A stretch of 64,000 bases of DNA from an uncultured Candidatus Saccharibacteria bacterium (GCA_964464695.1 CAYXKW010000006.1:2489-66488), one strand, 5' to 3'. Shown: positions 1 through 11,995, counted from the first letter of the stretch. Notes: a model not told the origin generated them from the sequence alone. Made by a program: numbers and translations.

Positions 1-1
1 A

Positions 2-2035
2 ACCGTTTCTGCAACAACAAGTGCATCTAATAACGTCGCAGGACTCTACGGTGCGTATAAGTTCAATCCAACAGATGGCGGTGTGCAAGTTGGTAACAGG
101 TTCACTGTAGAAAATGCACCAACTACAGCAACTAACACAGCGGTTGGAGAAATTATCCGTATGTCTGATAACACAGCACTTGCAAACACTATTAGAGGAC
201 TTGAAGTAGTGGCATCAGTTGGCTCAAATGCAAATGGTATCAACACCGGTATCCGTACAACTGGAGGAACATTTGGTATTCAGGCTCTTACAACAGGACT
301 AGCTGGAGGTGTTGCAACTCCAGCTGCAATTTATGGAGAAAATACTGGCACAACTCAAGGTGACATCTTGAGACTCTATTCAGGAACAATCACCTCAGCT
401 CCTTCAATGGCAAGTCTCTACCAAGAGCTCTCATCATACTCAGGTGCTGGACTACTTATGAATCTTGGTGCAAATGGTGGAGCGTTCACTGGTAACTTTA
501 TTGATCTTCAAAAGAATGGTGTATCACAATTCGTGGTATCAAATGGTGGAAATGTGACATTAAATGGTAACCTCACCGCAACAGGAACACTTTCAATCAT
601 CGGTAACACATCACTTGTGAATGCGTCCACTACAAACGTCACCGCATCTGGCTCACTCTTCCTCTCATCTCTCACCCCAGGATCTGTAGCATTCATCGGA
701 ACTGGAGGTGCTGTATCACAAAGTAATTCAGGGCTTTTCTTTGATAATTCAAACACTCGACTTGGTATCGGTACATCAACCCCAGGCACACGCCTTGATG
801 TCTACCAGAATACTTCTGCTACATCTACTGACATCTTCCGTATTATTTCTGATGTAACATCAACAGGAAACACAGTATTTAAAATAAAAGCAAATGGAGA
901 TGTCTTCACAGATGGAGCAACAACAATCGGAACACCTGCCGACCTTGCAGAAAATTATCCGGTTGCTTCAACCTCAGGCCCACTTCCTGCAGGAACAGTT
1001 GTTGCTCTTGCTACTTCAACACAAGACTGGTCATACGATAACGGCGAGACAGCATCAAGTACATTTGCAATGGCAACTATCAGGAAGTCATCATACGGAG
1101 AAGAAGCTATCGGAGTTATTTCAACGAAGCCAGGTATATTACTTGGTGGTAATACGGTAAATGGTGCACCAGTTGCTTTCTCAGGACGTGTACCAGTATT
1201 TGTAACTAATGAAAATGGTCCAGTTGTGAAAGGAGACGCTCTTACAGTGTCATCAGGTACTCCAGGGTACGCAATGAAGGCAACTGAAAATGCATACACC
1301 ATCGGACGCGCACTCTCTGATGCAGACGTAAACGCTACTGGTACAACAGTGCTGATGGTGGTAGAGAATAAGCAAAAGACAATTACTCTCACAGGAATTG
1401 ATGGACTTGGAGCTCTTGCTATCGCATCGTCATCAGTCTCTGCAACTACAACAGTGTTCGCAACTCTTACGGATAAGATTGCTCGTGGCGGTTCAGTTGT
1501 AAAAGAATATGTAGCGGTAAAGATGAGTGCCGTTGTTGGATACTTTGACAAATTATTTGCTCGTGAAATCTACACAGATAAAGTGTGTATCAAGAAGTCT
1601 AACGGTGAGGATGTCTGTCTCACTGGAGATCAGGTCGAGAGTATGATGAACAACACATCACAAATGCCACTCCTAAGTCCTACGATTTCAAATAACCAAG
1701 GTGGAACAGGTAGTGGAACAAGTACAATTCCTACAGATGAAACAGTCCTCGGCTCATCAACCTCGACTTCTCCAACAGGCACAGATACAGGAACAAGTAC
1801 TAGTCCTATAACAGGAACATCAACAGGAACATCAACAGGAACTGGAACAACGACAGTCGGAACAGGTTCTAGTACTCCCGACACATCAACGACAGGAGGA
1901 AGTACAACTACACCTACTCCTGAACCAACACCAACCCCAGAACCTACACCTGAGCCTACACCGGAACCAACACCAACCCCAGAACCTACTCCTGAACCAA
2001 CACCAACCCCAGAACCAACACCAGTCACTCCATAA
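2..2035 (+). CDS. Large secreted/surface protein, 5'-partial (the reading frame is open to the window edge). It is Thr/Gly/Ser-rich and has a C-terminal (PTPEPTPEP)n repeat tail.
   Basis: The frame from nt 2 has no stop before 2035, so the gene starts upstream of the window; the annotated GTG at 83 is internal. The last ~45 aa are roughly 12 PEPTP repeats. Composition is low-complexity T/G/S/N-rich, typical of cell-surface fibrillar proteins. Confidence 0.6.
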   Translation, partial: TVSATTSASNNVAGLYGAYKFNPTDGGVQVGNRFTVENAPTTATNTAVGEIIRMSDNTALANTIRGLEVVASVGSNANGINTGIRTTGGTFGIQALTTGLAGGVATPAAIYGENTGTTQGDILRLYSGTITSAPSMASLYQELSSYSGAGLLMNLGANGGAFTGNFIDLQKNGVSQFVVSNGGNVTLNGNLTATGTLSIIGNTSLVNASTTNVTASGSLFLSSLTPGSVAFIGTGGAVSQSNSGLFFDNSNTRLGIGTSTPGTRLDVYQNTSATSTDIFRIISDVTSTGNTVFKIKANGDVFTDGATTIGTPADLAENYPVASTSGPLPAGTVVALATSTQDWSYDNGETASSTFAMATIRKSSYGEEAIGVISTKPGILLGGNTVNGAPVAFSGRVPVFVTNENGPVVKGDALTVSSGTPGYAMKATENAYTIGRALSDADVNATGTTVLMVVENKQKTITLTGIDGLGALAIASSSVSATTTVFATLTDKIARGGSVVKEYVAVKMSAVVGYFDKLFAREIYTDKVCIKKSNGEDVCLTGDQVESMMNNTSQMPLLSPTISNNQGGTGSGTSTIPTDETVLGSSTSTSPTGTDTGTSTSPITGTSTGTSTGTGTTTVGTGSSTPDTSTTGGSTTTPTPEPTPTPEPTPEPTPEPTPTPEPTPEPTPTPEPTPVTP

Positions 2036-2054
2036 TTATTAACTACACACATAT

Positions 2055-4283
2055 ATGCAAACCATCTCCACTCAAATAAACTTTCTCAAAAAATATTCTA
2101 AGCTCTCAAAGTACATATTAGCTGTAGTTGTATTTGGTCTGGGGTCTGTCAGTCTGTTGTCTTCCCCAATCTCACCTGTTAATGCCGCCACAACAGTCGG
2201 AGTCTCCAACACCACCATCGTCCCACAAGGTCTTGTCGGTTATTGGACTTTTGATGGTAAAAATATGACGAATGCCACCGCTACGGATATAAGTGGGAGT
2301 GGTCTTAACGGAACACTTAAGAACATGACAACAGCTGGGAGTGCTATCCCAGGTAAGATGGGGCAAGCACTAAAGTTTAATGGAACAAGTAATTACATTA
2401 ATCTTGGGTCATCTGCAGTAGACAACTCAGTTTATTCAATCTCACTGTGGGTTTATAATTATGGATCAACCACTGGGCAAGTATTTATGCGTGGGAATGG
2501 AACAAGTTATTGTTTTTATAATCCATCTATATATATTGGGAATGGAACTATATCTGTTGCGGAAACAGGATGTTCAGGTGGTGGAACTATAGGATCGAAA
2601 GCACTAACAAAAGGTTGGCATCACATAGTAATTACACGTAATGGTCAGAATGCAATTTTCTATGTTGATGGTGTAGTTGTAGCAACAGATAATAGTAATA
2701 ATGGAGGAAATCCAACTCAGGGCGTTTTAATTTTTGGAGCAGCCCCAACAAATCCATCCGGAAGCACTGTAACAAATTATTTTGATGGTGCATTGGACGA
2801 CGTCCGCATCTACAACCGCGCAATCACCTCATCTGAAGTCCAAACCCTCTACAGAGCAGGTGGGGGAGTCCTAACTACTGCAACACCAAGTACAAGTAAT
2901 GCGGTCAGCTTAAATTCAGGACTTGCCGGGTATTGGACATTCGATGGAAAGAATATGACGAATGCTACCGCAACAGACATGAGCGGAAATGGGAACAACG
3001 GAACGCTAACGAATATGTCAAAATTAAGTAATGCGGTTGTAGGAAAGATAGGACAAGCACTAAAATTTGTAGGTGGGACAAATACGTTTGTGAGTGTTAA
3101 AGATAGTAATTCCCTTGATACGACATCTGATTTAACTATTTCAACATGGGTAAAAGCGAATAGTTGGACAGGTGAAAGTATCTATAACTATTCCACACTT
3201 GTAAAAAAAGATCAAAATTATATTTTACGTGCAGATAGTGTAACTATTTCAGGGTGTGGTGCAACAACTCAATTAAAGTTACTTTGGTTTAATGGGTCGT
3301 ATATTGATTCTTATTGTGTAGCACTCCCAACTGTGGGTATGTGGCACCATATTGTTGCTACTGTGCAAGGTGGAACGACTAAAAAAATGTATATTGATGG
3401 GGTACTCCAATCAGGTTCATATCATCCCAATGTAACCACCTTAGCAAGAAATTTAACTGTTAACTTATCAATTGGGGATCATCAAAGTTCCGGAGGAGAA
3501 GGTTTTGATGGACAGTTAGATGAAGTTCGTGTATATACACGTGCACTTTCCGCGCAAGAAGTTCAGTCCCTCTATAAACTTGGCCAAACACTAACATCGG
3601 TCAGTCCAACAAATAATAACGGTACTGGCATCAACTCCGGTCTCATTGGTTACTGGCCATTTGATGGGAAGTATATGACGAATACTACTGTACTCGATGC
3701 AAGTGGGAATGGTCTAACCGGTACATTAACCAACATGACTCGGAATGGTAGTGCTGTTATTGGAAAGATTGGACAAGGTTTAAAATTCACCGGAGCTGGT
3801 CAGTATATATCACTAGGTACTCCAGCATCTTTGGATTTGCGAAGTGCTCATAGTATTTCAGTGTGGGTAAAAACTAACGTTCTAAACACTACACAGACAA
3901 TATTTGCCGCAGGCACACAAGGATGTTGTGGTACAGAGAACTTATTTAGTCTTAATTACAACGGTGGAGGTGGAACATATAGACCACAGTATGCACATAG
4001 TGCATTTACTAGTCTAGATGCCGCACCACCAGACTTGAAAACTAACACATGGTACCACATAGTTGCAACTTGGGACGGATCAGCTACCCAGAAGATATAT
4101 ATAAATGGAATCTTAAGTAATTCAGGAGCGTTAACAGGGATTGGAAGTTTTGGAAATATTGCTAATATTGGAGCAACAGATGGAGGGGCTACATCTTTTA
4201 ACGGAACCATGGACGATCTGAGGGTGTATAGTCGAGAACTTTCTACATCCGATGTGAAAGCACTGTATAAGTTAGGAAATTAA
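2055..4283 (+). CDS. Secreted protein with three tandem LamG / concanavalin A-like lectin domains
   Basis: N-terminal signal/TM segment (LAVVVFGLGSVSLL). There are three ~230-aa internal repeats, each opening with GL(V/A/I)GYW(T/P)FDGK(N/Y)MTN..D.SG.G.NGTL.NM and closing with LD(D/E)VR(I/V)Y.RA(I/L)(T/S)..EV..LY; the third repeat ends MDDLRVYSRELSTSDVKALY. This matches the LamG_3-type pattern. Confidence 0.7.
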   Translation: MQTISTQINFLKKYSKLSKYILAVVVFGLGSVSLLSSPISPVNAATTVGVSNTTIVPQGLVGYWTFDGKNMTNATATDISGSGLNGTLKNMTTAGSAIPGKMGQALKFNGTSNYINLGSSAVDNSVYSISLWVYNYGSTTGQVFMRGNGTSYCFYNPSIYIGNGTISVAETGCSGGGTIGSKALTKGWHHIVITRNGQNAIFYVDGVVVATDNSNNGGNPTQGVLIFGAAPTNPSGSTVTNYFDGALDDVRIYNRAITSSEVQTLYRAGGGVLTTATPSTSNAVSLNSGLAGYWTFDGKNMTNATATDMSGNGNNGTLTNMSKLSNAVVGKIGQALKFVGGTNTFVSVKDSNSLDTTSDLTISTWVKANSWTGESIYNYSTLVKKDQNYILRADSVTISGCGATTQLKLLWFNGSYIDSYCVALPTVGMWHHIVATVQGGTTKKMYIDGVLQSGSYHPNVTTLARNLTVNLSIGDHQSSGGEGFDGQLDEVRVYTRALSAQEVQSLYKLGQTLTSVSPTNNNGTGINSGLIGYWPFDGKYMTNTTVLDASGNGLTGTLTNMTRNGSAVIGKIGQGLKFTGAGQYISLGTPASLDLRSAHSISVWVKTNVLNTTQTIFAAGTQGCCGTENLFSLNYNGGGGTYRPQYAHSAFTSLDAAPPDLKTNTWYHIVATWDGSATQKIYINGILSNSGALTGIGSFGNIANIGATDGGATSFNGTMDDLRVYSRELSTSDVKALYKLGN

Positions 4284-4715
4284 ATAATAGAAGTTTTACG
4301 ATAACGCGCCCTAAGTAGGGTACTTATTTAAAATTATTTAAGACAGTAATCAGCACAAACTTATCAACAAGTTGTACAAACTAAAGATGATTATTAACAT
4401 TATGAATGCTCTTGCAAAATCAGAAATATTTTTTGGCGTGTCATCAATTTGATTTATTTCCCTTGTAATTCTCCTCGAAGTGTCTCTTGTGTACCTCATT
4501 ATCATTGCATATAAGTTCGTTACTATCTCTGAAACAATAAAAAAGAAGACAGGAGGGTCTCCTTAAACAATTAATAGCGAAGGCAAGACCTTTGTTCTTT
4601 TTCGATATACGTCCATTATTTTTATAATGGCGCAATTTACAGCTAGTGTATTAAAAATAGTGCTCCACAGAAAGTCACATTAAGAAATGCTATAATTAGA
4701 GTACGTTATATATCT

Positions 4716-5747
4716 ATGATTGTCAGACATATTCACTTTTTAAAAATTGCTCTGTTGGTGTTTACTTTTCTTTTTGTACTGACAAATAATAATCTCTACG
4801 CTGAGACGGTAACTGGCGGAGGATACACAATTGAACAGGTTATTGCTCCGATTCAAGGGGCTATTTCTGGTAATGGGTACATTTTACAACAGTCTTCCCA
4901 AGTGCCTGGTTCAAAAGAAACAGGGGGAGGGTATGTTATCACAAGTGTTTTTGGGTCAGGTACTGTTGCTGTGATTACCCCACCACCTGCACCGTACACT
5001 CCACAAGTAAGTGGCGGTAGTTTCTTTGTTTTCCTTGATCCATATGGATACAGAATTCCACCCACACCAATTGCACCATCTTCTACGCCACAAGTTACGC
5101 CCACTAATCCAACCTCAACATCTCATGTTGTTATAGAAGGAACTTCCACTGACCCAATTGTTGTTGATTCAGGAAGTACTTGCTCATCAAGAATTACTTT
5201 TACTCGTGCGATAGATATTAATTCCCCAGACAACCTAAAAGAAGATGTTCAGAAACTGGAAATTTTCTTGAACACTTATGAAGGTGAGAAACTTCCGGTA
5301 AACGGAATTTATGAAAATCGTGATATTGTTGCAGTAAAAAAATGGCAACAAAAATATAGGACATTTGTGCTTGATCCTATGCTCCTTAAGCAACCAACAG
5401 GTACTATTTATACACTAAGTCAGCGCCAGATTGAGCGTCAGACTACAAAGCCGTGTGGTGAGCCAGTTGTTGTCACAGCATGTCCGTACTTTAAAGAATA
5501 TGCATATTATGGACAAAGAGGTCCAACTGTCCGAAAGATTCAGCAGTTCCTCAATGTTGTACGTGGTGAAAACTTACCATTAAGCGGTGTTTACGGTCCA
5601 CTAACTCGCGCTGCCACGAAGCGATTTCAGCAGGCGTATAGAAAAGATATTTTTAATATCCTTAAGCTAAGTTTCATTTCTGGAAACTGGAATGAAGCAA
5701 CCAGAGTAAAAGCCAACCAAGCAATTGGTTGTGATATAATCGAATAA
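4716..5747 (+). CDS. Secreted protein with a Pro/Thr linker and two putative peptidoglycan-binding-like repeats
   Basis: Signal peptide (LLVFTFLFVLTNNNLYA). Two C-terminal repeats, LPVNGIYENRDIVAVKKWQQKY and LPLSGVYGPLTRAATKRFQQAYRKD, resemble PG_binding_1 helices. TGGGY(T/V)I motifs are repeated near the N-terminus. Confidence 0.5.
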   Translation: MIVRHIHFLKIALLVFTFLFVLTNNNLYAETVTGGGYTIEQVIAPIQGAISGNGYILQQSSQVPGSKETGGGYVITSVFGSGTVAVITPPPAPYTPQVSGGSFFVFLDPYGYRIPPTPIAPSSTPQVTPTNPTSTSHVVIEGTSTDPIVVDSGSTCSSRITFTRAIDINSPDNLKEDVQKLEIFLNTYEGEKLPVNGIYENRDIVAVKKWQQKYRTFVLDPMLLKQPTGTIYTLSQRQIERQTTKPCGEPVVVTACPYFKEYAYYGQRGPTVRKIQQFLNVVRGENLPLSGVYGPLTRAATKRFQQAYRKDIFNILKLSFISGNWNEATRVKANQAIGCDIIE

Positions 5748-5762
5748 ATACAATCTATCGTT

Positions 5763-6281
5763 ATGGACCTCAATCAATTCGAAAAACGAAATACAGATCA
5801 AGAACATTTAATTCACGCAGAAGCACTCGGGGAAGTCGAAGCATCTTTTGCTCGAGGTGAAATGGAAAAAATCAAGCATAAACTTGAGGTCAGAAAGAAA
5901 AAACAAAAGCGACTAAAAATTATTTTCCTAAGTCTGGGAAGTGTCATTACATTACTTATTATTTTTGCAGTGTATTCCCAATACAAGTTATATACACTCG
6001 CTCGAGATGAAAAAATGATTCCGGCAGCTGTAACCACAGCAACCACTGGAACAGAAGTTGTGAAAATGCTTGGAAGACATGTCTTATTACCGGAAGGGGA
6101 GCCACAGATAGCAGAAGTGAAGGATATTGAAAAGTTACGAGATACTCAGGCATTTTTTAAGAATGCAGAAAATGGAGATCTTATTATTCTGTACCCAACC
6201 ACAATATTTATTTATCGGCCTTCGAAGGATATTGTGGTTTCTTCAGGTGATATTTCTGGTCTTGGTCAAACAAAACCATAA
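5763..6281 (+). CDS. Hypothetical single-pass membrane protein
   Basis: ORF with a Lys-rich region followed by one TM segment (IIFLSLGSVITLLIIFAVY). No recognisable motif. Confidence 0.35.
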   Translation: MDLNQFEKRNTDQEHLIHAEALGEVEASFARGEMEKIKHKLEVRKKKQKRLKIIFLSLGSVITLLIIFAVYSQYKLYTLARDEKMIPAAVTTATTGTEVVKMLGRHVLLPEGEPQIAEVKDIEKLRDTQAFFKNAENGDLIILYPTTIFIYRPSKDIVVSSGDISGLGQTKP

Positions 6282-6350
6282 GCAACTGGTGTTTTATCTA
6301 TTAATTAGATTACCTACAGTTATATAACTTTTGTATGTTATATTTATTGT

Positions 6351-6977
6351 GTGATTGTACTTACGAAAAAAGACACCATTGAAGGTAAAATTAAAGCGCT
6401 TTATTCTGCAAATTTTTCTATTGCTGAAGTAGCAGAAGAACTCAATATGTCACCATCGGGTATTCGGTATCATTTGGTAAAAAATGGAGTAAACATAAGA
6501 AAACGATCTGATGCTGTTAGGGTTAAGCATAATAAAAAATTAAATAGTCATAGTTCGCATATTCCAAAAAATATTCCTATTAATTTACAAAAGATTTATT
6601 TTATAGGATTGTCGCTTTATTGGGGTGAAGGATCGAAAACTGGTAACACGGTTGCAATTACAAATAGTGACCCGTCACTTATTCTCTCTTTTCTTGTGTT
6701 TCTACGTAAAATTTGTTTAATAGATGAAAAAAGACTTCATATCCTTATTCATTACCATGAAAATCAAAATGAGGATTCATTAATTAGACATTGGTCGGAA
6801 ATATGTAAAATTCCAAAGGCGCAATTCTATAAAAGCAGTCTTCATAAAAAAAGTAGTAAAAAGTCGACAAACTATTTAAAATTTGGTACTATTTCACTAC
6901 GCTATGCAGATACAGTCTTGTTTAATGAGTTATTAATAAGGATTGAGCAGTTGAAGATAGTAAATAAGCCAGAATAG
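6351..6977 (+). CDS. HTH-containing protein with a LAGLIDADG-like motif (possible free-standing homing endonuclease); its 3' end overlaps tRNA-Thr
   Basis: N-terminal HTH-like stretch (FSIAEVAEELNMSPSGIRYHLVKNG). A central YFIGLSLYWGEGSKTG resembles the LAGLIDADG core (compare LAGFVDGDGS and LLGLWIGDG). The stop codon (6975-6977) lies inside the tRNA-Thr acceptor stem. Confidence 0.35.
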   Translation: MIVLTKKDTIEGKIKALYSANFSIAEVAEELNMSPSGIRYHLVKNGVNIRKRSDAVRVKHNKKLNSHSSHIPKNIPINLQKIYFIGLSLYWGEGSKTGNTVAITNSDPSLILSFLVFLRKICLIDEKRLHILIHYHENQNEDSLIRHWSEICKIPKAQFYKSSLHKKSSKKSTNYLKFGTISLRYADTVLFNELLIRIEQLKIVNKPE

Positions 6978-7043: not shown

Positions 7044-7139
7044 ATAGAATGTTGAAAGTAGAAGGTGGAGAGTCGACTGAAGGGTCGACTTACATATAAT
7101 CTTAACCACCTACCACATTCCATACTCTACTTGCCAAAT

Positions 7140-7829
7140 ATGATAGACACAAAAAAGTATACATTCACGTTTTTCGTCACTACCGCTATTTTTGCGACGG
7201 CTTTTTTTGCGTCAACTTTTTTCTCTCAGAAGCGAGTAGAAAATGTTAAATTTATTCAAGACAATATTGCGATAGATATTCTTTCAAGTGAAACACAATT
7301 TGACCTGCTTAAAGAAGTCCCATGTCAGAATGTGAACGACTCAATCTTATCTCCGGAGTTAAGTGACTTAGGGGACAGACTTTCTCATACAGAAAATATA
7401 CGTGGTGAGAAAGATGCAGATGTGGTTTATCTAAAGAAATATTACTCATTACTTCAGGTAAAAGATTACTTACTTTCAAAAAAAGTTGCAGAGAAATGTG
7501 GGTCGCTTAAAAAGCAGGTATTTATTATTTATTTCTATTCAAATAAAGGAAATTGTTTAGACTGTCAAAAGGAAGGGTATGTGCTTACACGTCTTAAAGA
7601 AAAATATCCTGAGCTTCGAGTGTATTCATTTGATTTTGATTTAGATCTTTCTGTAATCAATTCATTGAAGTCAATTTACAAAGTACAATCAGCTCTCCCT
7701 GTGCTTATTATTGATGACAAGACATATACAGGGTATCAATCGATAGAGGACCTCGAAAAACTACTTCCAGAAACACTTAAGAAAATTGAGACTGCGTCGA
7801 CGACAACCTCAACAACTTCAAAAAAGTAG
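7140..7829 (+). CDS. Membrane-anchored thioredoxin-like protein (CxxC)
   Basis: Likely start is MIDTKKYTFTFFVTTAIFATAFFA (TM helix); the track's start at 7065 would include a hairpin (AGTCGAC..GTCGACT, 7070-7091) just after the tRNA. FYSNKGNCLDCQKEG has a CxxC motif in a thioredoxin-like context, and there is a C-terminal Thr-rich tail. Confidence 0.45.
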   Translation: MIDTKKYTFTFFVTTAIFATAFFASTFFSQKRVENVKFIQDNIAIDILSSETQFDLLKEVPCQNVNDSILSPELSDLGDRLSHTENIRGEKDADVVYLKKYYSLLQVKDYLLSKKVAEKCGSLKKQVFIIYFYSNKGNCLDCQKEGYVLTRLKEKYPELRVYSFDFDLDLSVINSLKSIYKVQSALPVLIIDDKTYTGYQSIEDLEKLLPETLKKIETASTTTSTTSKK

Positions 7830-10060: not shown

Positions 10061-11995
10061 ATGAAATTCTCTAAAGCATGGTTGCAAACCTATAGTAAAG
10101 AAGCATTGCCTGACACTAAAGTAATTGAAGAGGTTGTTACTTTTAATGCATTTGAAATAGAAGAAGTAACACAGGTAGAGGGAGATGATATTTTGGATAT
10201 CAAGGTGCTTCCAAACCGTGCACACGATGCTCTTGGTCACAGAGGGATGGCACACGATGTATGTGCGCTTACTGGTTCTACGTTTAATGACCCACATTCA
10301 TACTACAAAGGGGAAGGTGATACAACGGTAGTCTCACCAGTACTTCATATAGATGATACAACGGCTTGCACACGGTTCATGAGTGCTCGTATTGATGGTG
10401 TTACAGTTTTAGAGTCACCGGAGTGGCTCAAGACTCGCTTACAAGCTATTGGACAGAAGAGTATCAACTCAATTGTAGATATTACCAACTTCGTGCAGTT
10501 CTCAATTAATAAACCAATGCACGCTTATGACGCAAATCTTATTTCAGGAGGAATGCTTTCTGCAAGGTTCGCAACTCTTGGAGAGACACTCACTACGTTA
10601 GATGACAAGTCTCTTACCTTAGACGAAACGACGCTCGTCATAGCAGATAATGAGAAACCTCTAGGTCTAGCTGGTATAAAAGGGGGTAAATTTTCTGGCA
10701 TATCACAAGACACCACATCAGTAGTTTTAGAATCAGCCAATTTTAATGGTCCACTCATCAGAAAGACATCTCAGAAATATGGCATTCGTACCGATGCTTC
10801 CAAACGTTTCGAGAACGTCATTAGTGACACATTGGTTGAAGAGGGGTTGCGACTTACCATTTCACTCATTCTTGAATTATATCCTCATGCAAAAGTCTCT
10901 CCTATTGTAGACGTTTATCCAGTCACTCAAGAAAAAGTTACCGTAGATGTATCTGTTACACAGATAAATAAAGTGCTAGGTACGAAACTTACTGTAGAAG
11001 ATGTTACAAAAGTTTTTTCGTCGTTACTTTTTATTCACACGGTAACTGGAGATATTTTTACAGTTTTTGTCCCGGACGAGAGACTCGATGTCAGAATTAA
11101 AGAAGATTTAATCGAAGAAGTAGCACGTGTGCGTGGACTTGCGAGTATTCCGTCAGTCCTCCCAACGCTTTCTAGAAAAGGATTGCCACACAAGCGAATG
11201 TACTACGAAAACAAAATTAGAAAGATTCTTTTTGAACAAGGATTTTCTGATATTATGACGTATTCATTTGGGGATACTGGCGAAGTTGGAATCATTAAGG
11301 GACAGGCAAGTGACAAAGAAAAGCTTCGAAATATTTTGGGTAATGGGGTGCTTGAAGCTTTTCAGATGAACATGCTTAATGCTCCGCTTATGAAGTTAGA
11401 AACAATTAAAATGTATGAGTTTGGAAATATTTTTACAAAAGAATCAGGACAAGGATTCTCTAGCGGAGAGAGACGACATTTCGCAATTTGTTTTGACGAT
11501 GGAAAAAAGAAAACATCGTTTACTGATGAAGTGGATATGATACTAAGTGAGATCAAACGCACTCTGCAGGTTTCTAAAGTTGAATATGAAACTATATCAA
11601 CGAAACCATATGTAATAGAGATTGATTTTGATACACTTATTACATCTCTTCCAGAACCAACCTCCTATGAACCTCTTACACAGAATCCACTTTCTCATGC
11701 TTACCAAGCAATCTCTGCTTATCCGTTTATCACCCGTGATATTGCTATGTGGGTACCTGATTCTACAACATGGGAGAGTGTCAGCGCTCTTTGTTCTCAA
11801 GTGGGTAATCCTCTTGTTGCTCGTACTGATCTTTTTGATACCTTTTCAAAAGAAATTGAAGGTGTAAAAAAGACATCCCTTGCGTTTCGTCTAGTATTTC
11901 AAAGTTTTGAAAAGACGCTTACTGATGACGAAGTTAATGAAATGATGAAGCCATATTATGAGCTATTTAATACTAAAGGTTTTGAAATTAGATAA
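10061..11995 (+). CDS. pheT: Phenylalanine--tRNA ligase beta subunit (compact, 644 aa)
   Basis: N-terminus MKFSKAWLQTY is typical of PheT, it lies immediately downstream of pheS, and B3/B4 and B5 regions are recognisable. Confidence 0.85.
   Translation: MKFSKAWLQTYSKEALPDTKVIEEVVTFNAFEIEEVTQVEGDDILDIKVLPNRAHDALGHRGMAHDVCALTGSTFNDPHSYYKGEGDTTVVSPVLHIDDTTACTRFMSARIDGVTVLESPEWLKTRLQAIGQKSINSIVDITNFVQFSINKPMHAYDANLISGGMLSARFATLGETLTTLDDKSLTLDETTLVIADNEKPLGLAGIKGGKFSGISQDTTSVVLESANFNGPLIRKTSQKYGIRTDASKRFENVISDTLVEEGLRLTISLILELYPHAKVSPIVDVYPVTQEKVTVDVSVTQINKVLGTKLTVEDVTKVFSSLLFIHTVTGDIFTVFVPDERLDVRIKEDLIEEVARVRGLASIPSVLPTLSRKGLPHKRMYYENKIRKILFEQGFSDIMTYSFGDTGEVGIIKGQASDKEKLRNILGNGVLEAFQMNMLNAPLMKLETIKMYEFGNIFTKESGQGFSSGERRHFAICFDDGKKKTSFTDEVDMILSEIKRTLQVSKVEYETISTKPYVIEIDFDTLITSLPEPTSYEPLTQNPLSHAYQAISAYPFITRDIAMWVPDSTTWESVSALCSQVGNPLVARTDLFDTFSKEIEGVKKTSLAFRLVFQSFEKTLTDDEVNEMMKPYYELFNTKGFEIR

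Follow-up and report, generated by a model that had tools for sequence, protein, structure and literature searches.

The first 5747 bases of the window (the whole 64,000-nucleotide stretch of DNA that was analysed) carry three consecutive genes on the + strand, as the preliminary description had it: ORF1 (2-2035), ORF2 (2055-4283), and ORF3 (4716-5747). The organism is a small-genome bacterium of the Paceibacteria type (CPR). The window also contains a SecA gene and genes for MurC/MurD-like ligases, and the latter indicate that the cell makes peptidoglycan. ORF1, ORF2, and ORF3 are genuine genes for secreted proteins, since homologues exist for all three and the dN/dS values of ORF1 and ORF3 against a sister strain are 0.04-0.08 (0.02-0.08 when segments of ORF1 are included). 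The preliminary description took the LamG triplication of ORF2 as a sign of diversifying adhesin specificity; for ORF1 and ORF3, selection is strongly purifying. The earlier assignment of the products as secreted or surface proteins also holds: by inspection, ORF2 and ORF3 begin with signal peptides, and Sec signals are present in full-length relatives of ORF1.

The reading frame of ORF1 is open from base 2, at the window edge, to the stop at 2035, and comprises 677 codons (+ strand). What it encodes is the C-terminal part (677 aa) of a giant secreted fibre protein whose N-terminal portion falls outside the window. As first described, the protein is rich in T (17.4%), G (12.4%), and S (10.3%), and its place in a giant fibre is borne out by the closest full-length relative, the 2075-aa protein of L004. 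The amino acid identity is 97% to the L022 protein and 73% to the L004 protein. The ORF1 family comprises 4844 representative clusters, with members up to 5000 aa. In full-length fibre relatives, a Sec signal peptide opens the protein and a conserved N-domain follows. P0343, P0345, P0035, and the L009 fibre combine a signal peptide with a conserved 'INYQG' domain; in the full-length L004 orthologue, the first start codon is not followed by a signal peptide. Two-thirds of the AF2 model of the ORF1 monomer, including the stalk, is of low confidence. The fragment begins with a conserved module, hereafter module A (aa 4-210; 11-631, + strand), which recurs alone in many giant relatives and is the top-scoring stretch in most family matches. 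Module A has a dN/dS of 0.018, an AF2 pLDDT of ~50, and no match in Pfam; it is a candidate for the distal part or for a binding region.

The sole confidently modelled domain of ORF1 spans aa ~270-465 (809-1396, + strand; AF2 pLDDT 80-95). According to AF2, Foldseek, and hhalign, it is a phi29-gp12-type (Peptidase_G2-like) intramolecular chaperone domain, and its predicted fold is that of the C-terminal auto-chaperone of phi29 gp12. In particular, Foldseek matches the model to 3suc (E 2.3e-5) and 3gqh_A (E 2.8e-4) in the PDB, and to a 'Preneck appendage protein' (E 4.5e-11) and a Peptidase G2 IMC protein (E 5.4e-5) in BFVD. The hhalign match to gp12 has an E-value of 8.5e-6 with a probability of only 64%. 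Against the Pfam Peptidase_G2 family (PF11962; cut-off 25 bits), ORF1 stays below threshold, with 10.5 bits for the whole protein and 17.2 bits for the isolated domain; the family member P0054 (E 4.7e-39 to ORF1) scores 30 bits and clears it. Peptidase_S74 chaperones (K1F endosialidase, T5 pb1, and MyRF) do the same job in similar proteins, and Peptidase_S74 is present in several other relatives of ORF1, sometimes in tandem with a G2-like module. ORF1 differs from them in that it has no Pfam HMM match to Peptidase_S74 (PF13884), and the SDxxxK motif is absent from both ORF1 and the L004 orthologue.

Processing of gp12 is ATP-dependent and intracellular. In the hhalign alignment, S691/D692-F-A-E-Y-F of phi29 gp12 corresponds to aa 313-319 of ORF1 (A-D-L-A-E-N-Y; 938-958, + strand), which places a putative autocleavage site at A313/D314. 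In accordance, the last residue of mature gp12* is 691 (PMC6542822). The D, A, and E of the motif are kept in 33-36 of the 37 family members, and the aromatic residue is aligned and conserved. At P1, 27 of the 37 have Ala, where gp12 has Ser. ORF1 and phi29 gp12 (PF11962; 3suc, 3gqh) share the fold of this region, the motif x/D-x-A-E-x-[YF] can be aligned between them, and in both the module follows a β-structured shaft, which is trimeric in gp12 and putatively so in ORF1. ORF1 differs from gp12 in its P1 residue, in the ~210 aa beyond the module, in a similarity that lies below the Pfam threshold, and in its Sec export, with which maturation would be extracellular; moreover, it is no part of a virion.

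The chaperone module is followed by a conserved extension (aa 466-560; 1397-1681, + strand) with helices and a Cys-x10-Cys hairpin, 'VCIKKSNGEDVCLTGDQVE'. The extension is conserved in P0001, P0003, P0006, L004, P0340, and P0343, has a dN/dS of 0.027, and has no equivalent in phi29 gp12. The remainder of ORF1 is a low-complexity tail rich in T, S, and G (aa 561-677; 1682-2032, + strand), the last 42 aa of which are TPTPEP/TPEP repeats (1907-2032). About 12 PTPEP repeats had been reported here; we count seven 'PEP' units (TRF, 18-nt period x 6.3). Even between ORF1 and the 97%-identical L022 protein the repeats vary in number and sequence, with indels and a dN/dS of 0.18 for the tail, and other relatives have unrelated low-complexity tails in this place. 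The repeats had also been taken for a cell-wall-spanning stalk. This is unlikely, because the repeats close the protein, beyond the chaperone module, and sequence inspection reveals nothing behind them that could serve as an anchor, neither a transmembrane segment nor a sortase signal. They also lie ~210 aa downstream of that gp12-type module, and in characterised relatives the module is cleaved off.

ORF2, which starts 19 nt after ORF1, encodes a secreted protein of 742 aa with three LamG (Laminin_G_3) repeats (2055-4283, + strand). The Sec-type signal peptide (aa 1-44; 2055-2186) is recognised by inspection and hydropathy only, from a basic and hydrophobic N-terminus and an A-x-A-like site, VNA/A. 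The repeats, found by Pfam and repeat analysis, span aa 59-269, 289-510, and 529-741 (2229-2861, 2919-3584, and 3639-4277, + strand). An HMM search with Laminin_G_3 (PF13385; cut-off 27.6 bits) gives 245 bits (E 4e-73) in three stretches, and the DNA shows the triplication as well, as three copies with spacings of 690 and 720 nt. The repeats are divergent, as stated before, with a pairwise identity of 44% on aligned columns, or 38-39% with gaps counted, in place of the ~35% given previously. Tandem Laminin_G_3 domains are shared with more than 1760 proteins, among them secreted CPR proteins of Moranbacteria, Uhrbacteria, and Paceibacteria with 3 to 5 repeats and 700-1200 aa. The haloarchaeal Tat-fimbria subunit TafC also has a LamG domain (NCBIfam, 137 bits). 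We reject ORF2 as a TafC protein (NF052521), as its score of 136.7 bits compares with a cut-off of 410 and the match is limited to the LamG domains; unlike TafC, ORF2 has a Sec rather than a Tat signal and no pilin-type signal. The best non-self homologue of ORF2 is 38-42% identical, and no orthologue above 42% is found among the homologues searched. ORF2 is strain-specific accessory cargo of the lectin type.

ORF3 (4716-5747, + strand) encodes a protein of 343 aa that, from Pfam, AF2, and alignment, is predicted to be secreted, non-catalytic, and peptidoglycan-binding. A signal peptide (4716-4802; basic and hydrophobic N-terminus and A-x-A-like site LYA/E, by inspection and hydropathy only) is followed by a conserved GGGY/GNGY β-hairpin region (4803-4955), a P/T/S linker (4956-5180), and two PG_binding_1-like repeats (5181-5456 and 5481-5732), all on the + strand. 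The two PG-binding-like helical units of the preliminary description are thus recovered. Repeat 2 (aa 268-309) scores 36.1 bits against PG_binding_1 (PF01471; cut-off 23); repeat 1, at 13.3 bits, is sub-threshold. The repeats are 37% identical over 52 aa (E 1e-10) and are modelled with the same helical fold (AF2 pLDDT 80-94 over aa 160-250 and 260-340). Every meaningful Foldseek match bears PG_binding_1 (9h68, 5tv7, 6tci, 1lbu, 4c2c), and no catalytic domain is found in Pfam, the AF2 model, or Foldseek. The helical fold is that of the PG_binding_1 modules of SleB, SleC, CtpB, the Streptomyces DD-peptidase (1lbu), and phage endolysins, here in two copies. In contrast to these proteins, ORF3 carries the β-hairpin module and the linker instead of an enzymatic domain, and each repeat is bracketed by Cys residues; the four Cys are invariant in 40 homologues. 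ORF3 is a candidate wall anchor or adaptor.

Comparison of related loci distinguishes two parts of the region. ORF3 is the first gene of a conserved core in the order ORF3, ORF4, thioredoxin-like protein, GT2, PheS, PheT. ORF4 (5763-6281, + strand) begins 15 nt 3' of ORF3 and encodes a 172-aa single-pass membrane protein (hydrophobic segment aa 49-75); ORF3 and ORF4 are syntenic in 12 of 12 informative loci. Upstream of ORF3, gene content varies. The near-identical strain L022 (nucleotide identity 88-93%) is without ORF2 and ORF5 and has an IS200-like gene in the slot of ORF2; the LamG gene is also missing in L023 and L024. L001, L002, L007, and L009 have no LamG gene, and the fibre gene directly adjoins ORF3 (in L009, in the order tsf, fibre gene, ORF3). 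L008, L011, and L012 have neither gene upstream of ORF3, and in L011 and L012 tsf is immediately upstream. The spacer between ORF2 and ORF3 (4284-4715, no strand; 432 bp) contains terminator-like hairpins at 4308-4321 (+ strand) and 4543-4596 (both strands), and its match to L022 is confined to the last 56 nt. In relatives, an IS200-like Y1 transposase gene occupies this position; no transposase remnant is found in the spacer itself. In bases 1-5747, a variable surface-protein slot probably meets a conserved core of envelope genes on a Paceibacteria (CPR) chromosome. ORF1, ORF2, and ORF3 lie in this variable slot and do not form a fixed three-part attachment machine.

The closest cellular parallel to the stalk may be the mosaic adhesive trimer (MAT) fibres of Bdellovibrio bacteriovorus (Bd2133, Bd3182, and others; PDB 8ond, 8oml, 8on4, 8ol4; PMC10769870). 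The ORF1 family profile matches 8ond (E 5e-5) and 8oml (E 3.9e-4), with the aligned motif GN[VL]G[IL]GT..P...L.V. The corresponding 'capping-loop'-type motif, common to MAT fibres, is LGIGTSTPGTRL in ORF1 (aa 254-265; 761-796, + strand); it occurs once in the window fragment and nine times in the L004 orthologue. This short repeated motif weakly suggests a sequence link between the ORF1 stalk and MAT fibres. Both are cellular, non-viral, phage-tail-fibre-like surface proteins of ~1000 aa or more from bacteria that live on other cells, with a repetitive β-rich stalk that carries the loop motif and a C-terminus that is variable or of the chaperone type; in layout, MAT fibres and full-length ORF1 relatives also share a signal peptide followed by a conserved N-domain. 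They differ at the C-terminus, where MAT fibres have an S74 module (SDxxxK) or an adhesive tip and ORF1 has a G2/gp12-type module, the conserved extension, and a low-complexity tail. Furthermore, the ORF1 family, unlike MAT fibres, reaches 5000 aa, and ORF1 is produced by a CPR bacterium whose envelope is Gram-positive-like, whereas MAT fibres belong to a deltaproteobacterial predator.

The three genes had been read as a single co-functional host-attachment apparatus, with a PT-stalk-anchored fibre, a LamG specificity factor, and a peptidoglycan-binding base. The genes are adjacent on one strand, ORF1 and ORF2 being almost contiguous, the three products all look exported, the order fibre, LamG, ORF3 is seen again in L004, and LamG genes lie upstream of ORF3 in L005, L006, and L010. 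However, the absence of the LamG gene from L022 and four further loci, the occurrence of ORF3 without either partner, the hairpin-containing spacer before ORF3, and an unconserved PT tail that has no anchor and lies beyond the chaperone-type module make such an apparatus improbable. That the region is a prophage or phage remnant, with ORF1 as tail fibre, ORF2 as LamG virion protein, and ORF3 as endolysin, is more improbable by far. The structural neighbours of ORF1 are viral, and PHROG matches include tail fibre for ORF1 (E 1.2e-3), virion structural protein for ORF2 (E 7e-38), and endolysin families for ORF3, but these matches span generic LamG and PG-binding domains only. ORF3 is not catalytic, Sec signal peptides are present on ORF2, ORF3, and full-length fibre relatives, and the surrounding genes have housekeeping functions (in relatives, rpsB and tsf on the upstream side; GT2, PheS, PheT, MurC/D, and GyrB downstream). 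In addition, synteny and purifying selection hold over more than 10 genomes, and tblastn against 50,697 phage records yields three weak matches only.

As for ORF1 itself, the gp12-like domain could be a permanent, uncleaved trimerization knob, comparable with capsid decoration or cement proteins and the C-terminus of the P22 tailspike; the extension and PT/TSG tail would then stay on the fibre and could serve, for instance, as a glycosylated brush or as a contact for ORF3. P22 retains its C-terminal auto-chaperone (PMC3357383), Foldseek also finds the fold of the ORF1 domain in uncleaved trimeric decoration proteins (BB1 8pkh, phi29 gp8.5, and Pam3), the Ala at P1 is not the Ser of gp12, and purifying selection on the extension is stronger than expected for a discarded pro-piece. 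On the other hand, a near-invariant D-x-A-E-x-[YF] lies exactly at the cleavage position of gp12, and relatives carry bona fide self-cleaving S74 modules, so we regard a permanent knob as rather unlikely.

We favour, with some confidence, a reading in which ORF1 is a phage-fibre-like trimer, ORF2 is swappable, and ORF3 is a conserved wall-binding protein. For ORF1 we infer trimerization, cleavage, and a particular orientation on the cell, as well as any part it plays in host attachment; the order of events would be as follows. ORF1 would make up the distal third of a giant fibre that is exported by Sec and has the plan of phage tail fibres and MAT adhesins, in which a long β-rich repetitive stalk leads to a conserved distal module and then to a C-terminal phi29-gp12-type (Peptidase_G2-like) chaperone. 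After export, three chaperone modules would associate and set the three chains in register, and the stalk would fold as an intertwined trimer. The chain would then probably be cut at A313/D314. The chaperone would thereby be shed together with the conserved extension and PT/TSG tail, and module A would become the exposed tip of a fibre held on the cell via its N-terminal end. ORF2 would be exported independently, as one occupant of a slot whose content is swapped among strains: it may hold a LamG or an IS200-like gene, or be empty. ORF3 would bind the peptidoglycan of its own cell through its two PG_binding_1 domains and display the β-hairpin N-module on the flexible linker; together with ORF4, the thioredoxin-like protein, and the GT2 glycosyltransferase, it would make up a conserved envelope cluster. 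Adhesion or host attachment by these proteins is plausible.

More tentatively, Paceibacteria and related CPR bacteria may possibly possess an uncharacterised and very large family of giant surface fibres exported by Sec, which comprises at least 4800 clusters at 50% identity. Such fibres might be folded outside the cell by phi29-gp12-type (G2) chaperones, in some cases in tandem with S74 modules, and be encoded in a strain-variable slot, with ORF3 as a wall-docking adaptor, and might act with LamG lectins on host range. If this is true, the giant fibres would be the CPR counterpart of the MAT prey-recognition fibres of Bdellovibrio, and fibres and swappable LamG lectins would determine the episymbiotic host range.

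ORF1 (2–2035), ORF2 (2055–4283), and ORF3 (4716–5747) are all present on the plus strand, where the preliminary description placed them. The frame of ORF1 is open from base 2 through the stop codon at 2035 (677 codons), and the orthologue in the near-identical strain L022 extends 283 residues further upstream. The protein is rich in T (17%), G (12%), and S (10%), as described, but its tail contains about seven TPTPEP/TPEP units (42 residues, 6.3 copies of an 18-nt period) instead of about 12 PTPEP repeats. Nothing in Pfam matches ORF1 above threshold, and a faint Peptidase_G2 match lies at the segment ADLAENYP. The Pfam match of the PT tail is dismissed as an artefact, as are the low-complexity matches to Trypan_PARP, TonB, and SslE in Pfam and NCBIfam. 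A phmmer search of PDB sequences matches the PT tail alone, through compositional similarity to SslE/AcfD.

The AF2 model of ORF1, built from 37 sequences, is confident for residues ~270–460 only (pLDDT 80–95). In the PDB, this domain is closest to premature phi29 gp12 (3suc, E = 2.3e-5); its other near neighbours are the C-terminal fragment of gp12 (3gqh, E = 2.8e-4) and capsid decoration proteins that are trimeric. Among viral models, the best match is a "preneck appendage protein" (E = 4.5e-11), together with tail proteins and a "Peptidase G2 IMC" (intramolecular chaperone) protein. In a profile–sequence alignment, T-P-A|D-L-A-E-N-Y of ORF1 falls on T-W-S|D-F-A-E-Y-F of gp12. The C-terminal residue of mature gp12* is 691 (PMC6542822); therefore, the position aligned with A|D of ORF1 is the gp12 cleavage site. 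The D, A, E, and aromatic residues of the motif are conserved in 33–36 of the 37 family members, and one relative, P0054, exceeds the Pfam G2 threshold (30 bits). The motif of the Peptidase_S74 (S74) chaperone type is absent from ORF1. A tblastn search of 50,697 phage genomes with the G2-like domain returns just three weak jumbo-phage matches, and no paper on an intramolecular chaperone in Patescibacteria was found in our literature searches.

The gp12-type reading of ORF1 has several weak points. The sequence scores are below threshold, and Ala occupies P1. The long conserved extension beyond the G2-like module counts against a gp12-type mechanism, as does the setting of maturation, which would be extracellular and without ATP, whereas gp12 processing is ATP-dependent. 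A further weak point is that the gp12-like fold also occurs as an uncleaved trimeric knob. Beyond the G2-like module, ORF1 continues with the conserved extension, whose ~95 residues include a Cys-x10-Cys hairpin, then with a stretch rich in T, S, and G, and finally with the PT repeat. Two relatives carry double chaperone modules: P0003 (L002:15–2654) combines an internal Peptidase_S74 domain (residues 276–336, 42.8 bits) with a C-terminal G2-like module, and P0359 has two G2-like D-I-A-E modules in a single chain. Thus, one precursor may give several fibre pieces.

A word search for relatives of ORF1 retrieves 96 hypothetical proteins of 400–1150 residues, several with Peptidase_S74, one with Peptidase_G2, and some named "tail fiber domain-containing". 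Exhaustive scanning with HMMER extends the family to 4844 representative clusters, 1075 of them at E ≤ 1e-10 and the longest protein having 5013 residues, and separates two modules, residues ~4–210 and ~240–590. The closest full-length relative, encoded in the related locus L004, is 73% identical and 2075 residues long, with NTTG-type repeats and nine VGIGTxTPxxxL motifs; its N-terminus presents a DGQTW...YGNGIFVAV repeat, and a signal peptide is not visible. In three other full-length fibres (P0340, P0343, and P0345), SGRYAYV...S.IDIS.P repeats are strung together over long stretches and resemble LVIVD/beta-propeller repeats.

The ORF1 family profile also matches crystal structures of the mosaic adhesive trimer (MAT) fibres of Bdellovibrio (8ond, E = 5e-5; 8oml, E = 3.9e-4) through a GN[VL]G[IL]GT..P...L.V motif common to both. 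MATs are trimeric, surface-displayed fibres that recognise prey, in which a signal peptide precedes a conserved N-domain and the chain carries either an S74 chaperone or an adhesive tip (PMC10769870). Full-length ORF1 relatives likewise begin with a Sec signal followed by a conserved N-domain ("INYQG"). The most interesting element of the locus is the ORF1 family, which represents a CPR analogue of the MATs and of phage-tail fibres and has a chaperone of G2 type. No description of it was found in the literature searched.

The PT repeat had been taken for a wall-spanning stalk. Inspection of the ORF1 C-terminus reveals no hydrophobic segment or sorting motif, and the tail differs across all relatives, including the L022 protein, which is 97% identical in amino acids; this role is therefore not retained. 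Anchoring of ORF1 or ORF2 through sortase, LPXTG, or a C-terminal TM helix is rejected, since both lack a hydrophobic segment at the C-terminus. Elsewhere in the 64-kb window there are no paralogues of ORF1, ORF2, or ORF3.

In ORF2 (742 residues), three stretches are recognised by Pfam Laminin_G_3 (245 bits), consistent with the proposed LamG repeats, which span residues 59–269, 289–510, and 529–741. The triplication holds and is also detectable at the DNA level, but the pairwise identity of the repeats is 44% over aligned columns, or 38–39% counting gaps, rather than the ~35% proposed. By inspection, the N-terminus is of Sec type, with a basic segment, a hydrophobic stretch, and VNA|A. A type IV pilin-like LamG protein is dismissed, as the N-terminus lacks the G|FTLxE prepilin signal. 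A comparison with 5.8 billion proteins gives no orthologue of ORF2, its closest non-self homologue being 38–42% identical. More than 1760 multi-LamG proteins of 700–1200 residues exist, mostly in CPR lineages. No direct or inverted repeats flank ORF2 as insertion marks.

ORF3 (343 residues) contains one PG_binding_1 repeat above threshold (36 bits) and a second below it (13 bits). The two are 37% identical over 52 residues (E = 1e-10) and, by sequence, clearly homologous, in line with the two peptidoglycan-binding segments proposed. In the AF2 model (40 sequences), an N-terminal helix corresponding to the signal peptide and short, low-confidence hairpins at the GGGY/GNGY motifs accompany a disordered P/T/S linker (residues ~80–155), which is followed by two confident helical domains. 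The fold neighbours of these domains (SleC, SleB-N, CtpB, 1lbu, and endolysins) all carry PG_binding_1, and no catalytic domain is found in Pfam or NCBIfam. The N-terminus is of Sec type by inspection (basic, hydrophobic, then LYA|E), and A29 and E30, on either side of the predicted cleavage point, are conserved in 90% or more of a set of 40 homologues. Four Cys residues bracketing both repeats are invariant in the same set. Relatives of ORF3 are 85%, 75%, and 71% identical.

ORF4 (5763–6281, 172 residues) lies 15–100 nt 3' of ORF3 in all relatives and matches no family above threshold. Its N-terminus is charged, and it contains a single TM helix and, at the C-terminus, a conserved domain of ~95 residues. 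ORF6 (7065–7829) always adjoins ORF3, ORF4, and the glycosyltransferase gene GT2. Its membrane-anchored product contains a C-L-D-C motif and faintly matches thioredoxin/glutaredoxin-like proteins. It could oxidise the invariant Cys residues of its exported neighbours.

The window is ordinary chromosome, encoding GT2, PheS, PheT, two Mur ligases, GyrB, ThrRS, SecA, LepA, BipA, a P-type ATPase, and five tRNAs. With these housekeeping surroundings and no phage genes near ORF1–ORF3, a prophage module is rejected. The homologues of the three proteins come from Paceibacteria/Parcubacteria-type MAGs. We compared fifteen related loci, mapping genes by tblastn. The order ORF3–ORF4–(HTH)–thioredoxin-like–GT2–PheS–PheT is kept in all loci that are long enough. 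Upstream of ORF3 is a fibre gene only in L001, L002/L003, L007, L009, and L022/L023; a fibre gene plus a LamG gene in the window and L004; a LamG gene, with the sequence ending further upstream, in L005, L006, and L010; and neither, with tsf or uvrB directly upstream, in L008, L011, and L012.

L022 is 88–93% identical to the window in nucleotides and has no counterpart of 1997–4659 and 6286–6962; an IS200-like Y1 transposase gene (3272–3928) takes the place of ORF2, and ORF5 is absent. Such a gene also separates LamG from ORF3 in L004 (9180–9884), L005 (1003–1848), and L010 (2756–3454), in all four loci on the minus strand immediately upstream of the ORF3 homologue. No remnant is found in the 432-bp spacer (4284–4715) or the rest of the window. 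The comparison shows that the LamG gene beside the fibre is strain-specific cargo, not part of a fixed machine, and the three genes do not form the conserved module envisaged. ORF5 (6351–6977, 208 residues), with an N-terminal HTH and a weak Cbp1-like match, is the second gene that varies between strains: it occurs in L002 and L010 but not in L001, L004, or L022. Its 3' end runs past the tRNA-Thr start at 6968. The PheRS beta subunit is ~794–800 residues long in L001 (6974–9355), L002, L007, L008, and L011, and in these related Paceibacteria a peptidase domain of the NlpC/P60 type (Pfam, 42 bits, residues 356–474) is inserted in its B5 region. The insert is absent from the window PheT (10061–11995, 644 residues), L004, L006, and L012.

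Between the window and L022, dN/dS is 0.044 for ORF1, 0.076 for ORF3, 0.058 for ORF4, 0.020 for ORF6, and 0.028 for GT2. Therefore, the C-terminal third of the fibre and ORF3 carry no sign of diversifying selection. The relaxed part is the ORF1 tail only (dN/dS 0.18, with changes in repeat number).

The earlier interpretation thus stands for surface or secreted proteins with a giant fibre, and not for the PT stalk or the three-gene module. With some confidence, we favour a fibre that is exported and folds with the help of a gp12-type chaperone, next to a lectin gene that strains can swap and, in ORF3, an adaptor bound to the wall. The analysis shows the identity and fold of the domains, the conservation of the motif, the synteny, and the variability in gene content. 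Trimerisation of ORF1 and its cleavage at A313|D314 would follow by analogy with gp12 (PMC6542822, PMC3357383) and MATs (PMC10769870). The same analogy suggests that the fibre would be retained on the cell by its N-terminus and adhere to the host.

To our knowledge, how ultra-small CPR bacteria recognise and hold their hosts is largely unknown, and type IV pili are the usual suspects. The individual domains at this locus are ordinary. The locus suggests a second candidate class, trimeric fibres that resemble phage tail fibres, carry a self-chaperoning C-terminus, and parallel the prey-recognition fibres of Bdellovibrio. It also offers a defined genomic slot for surveying host-range variation.
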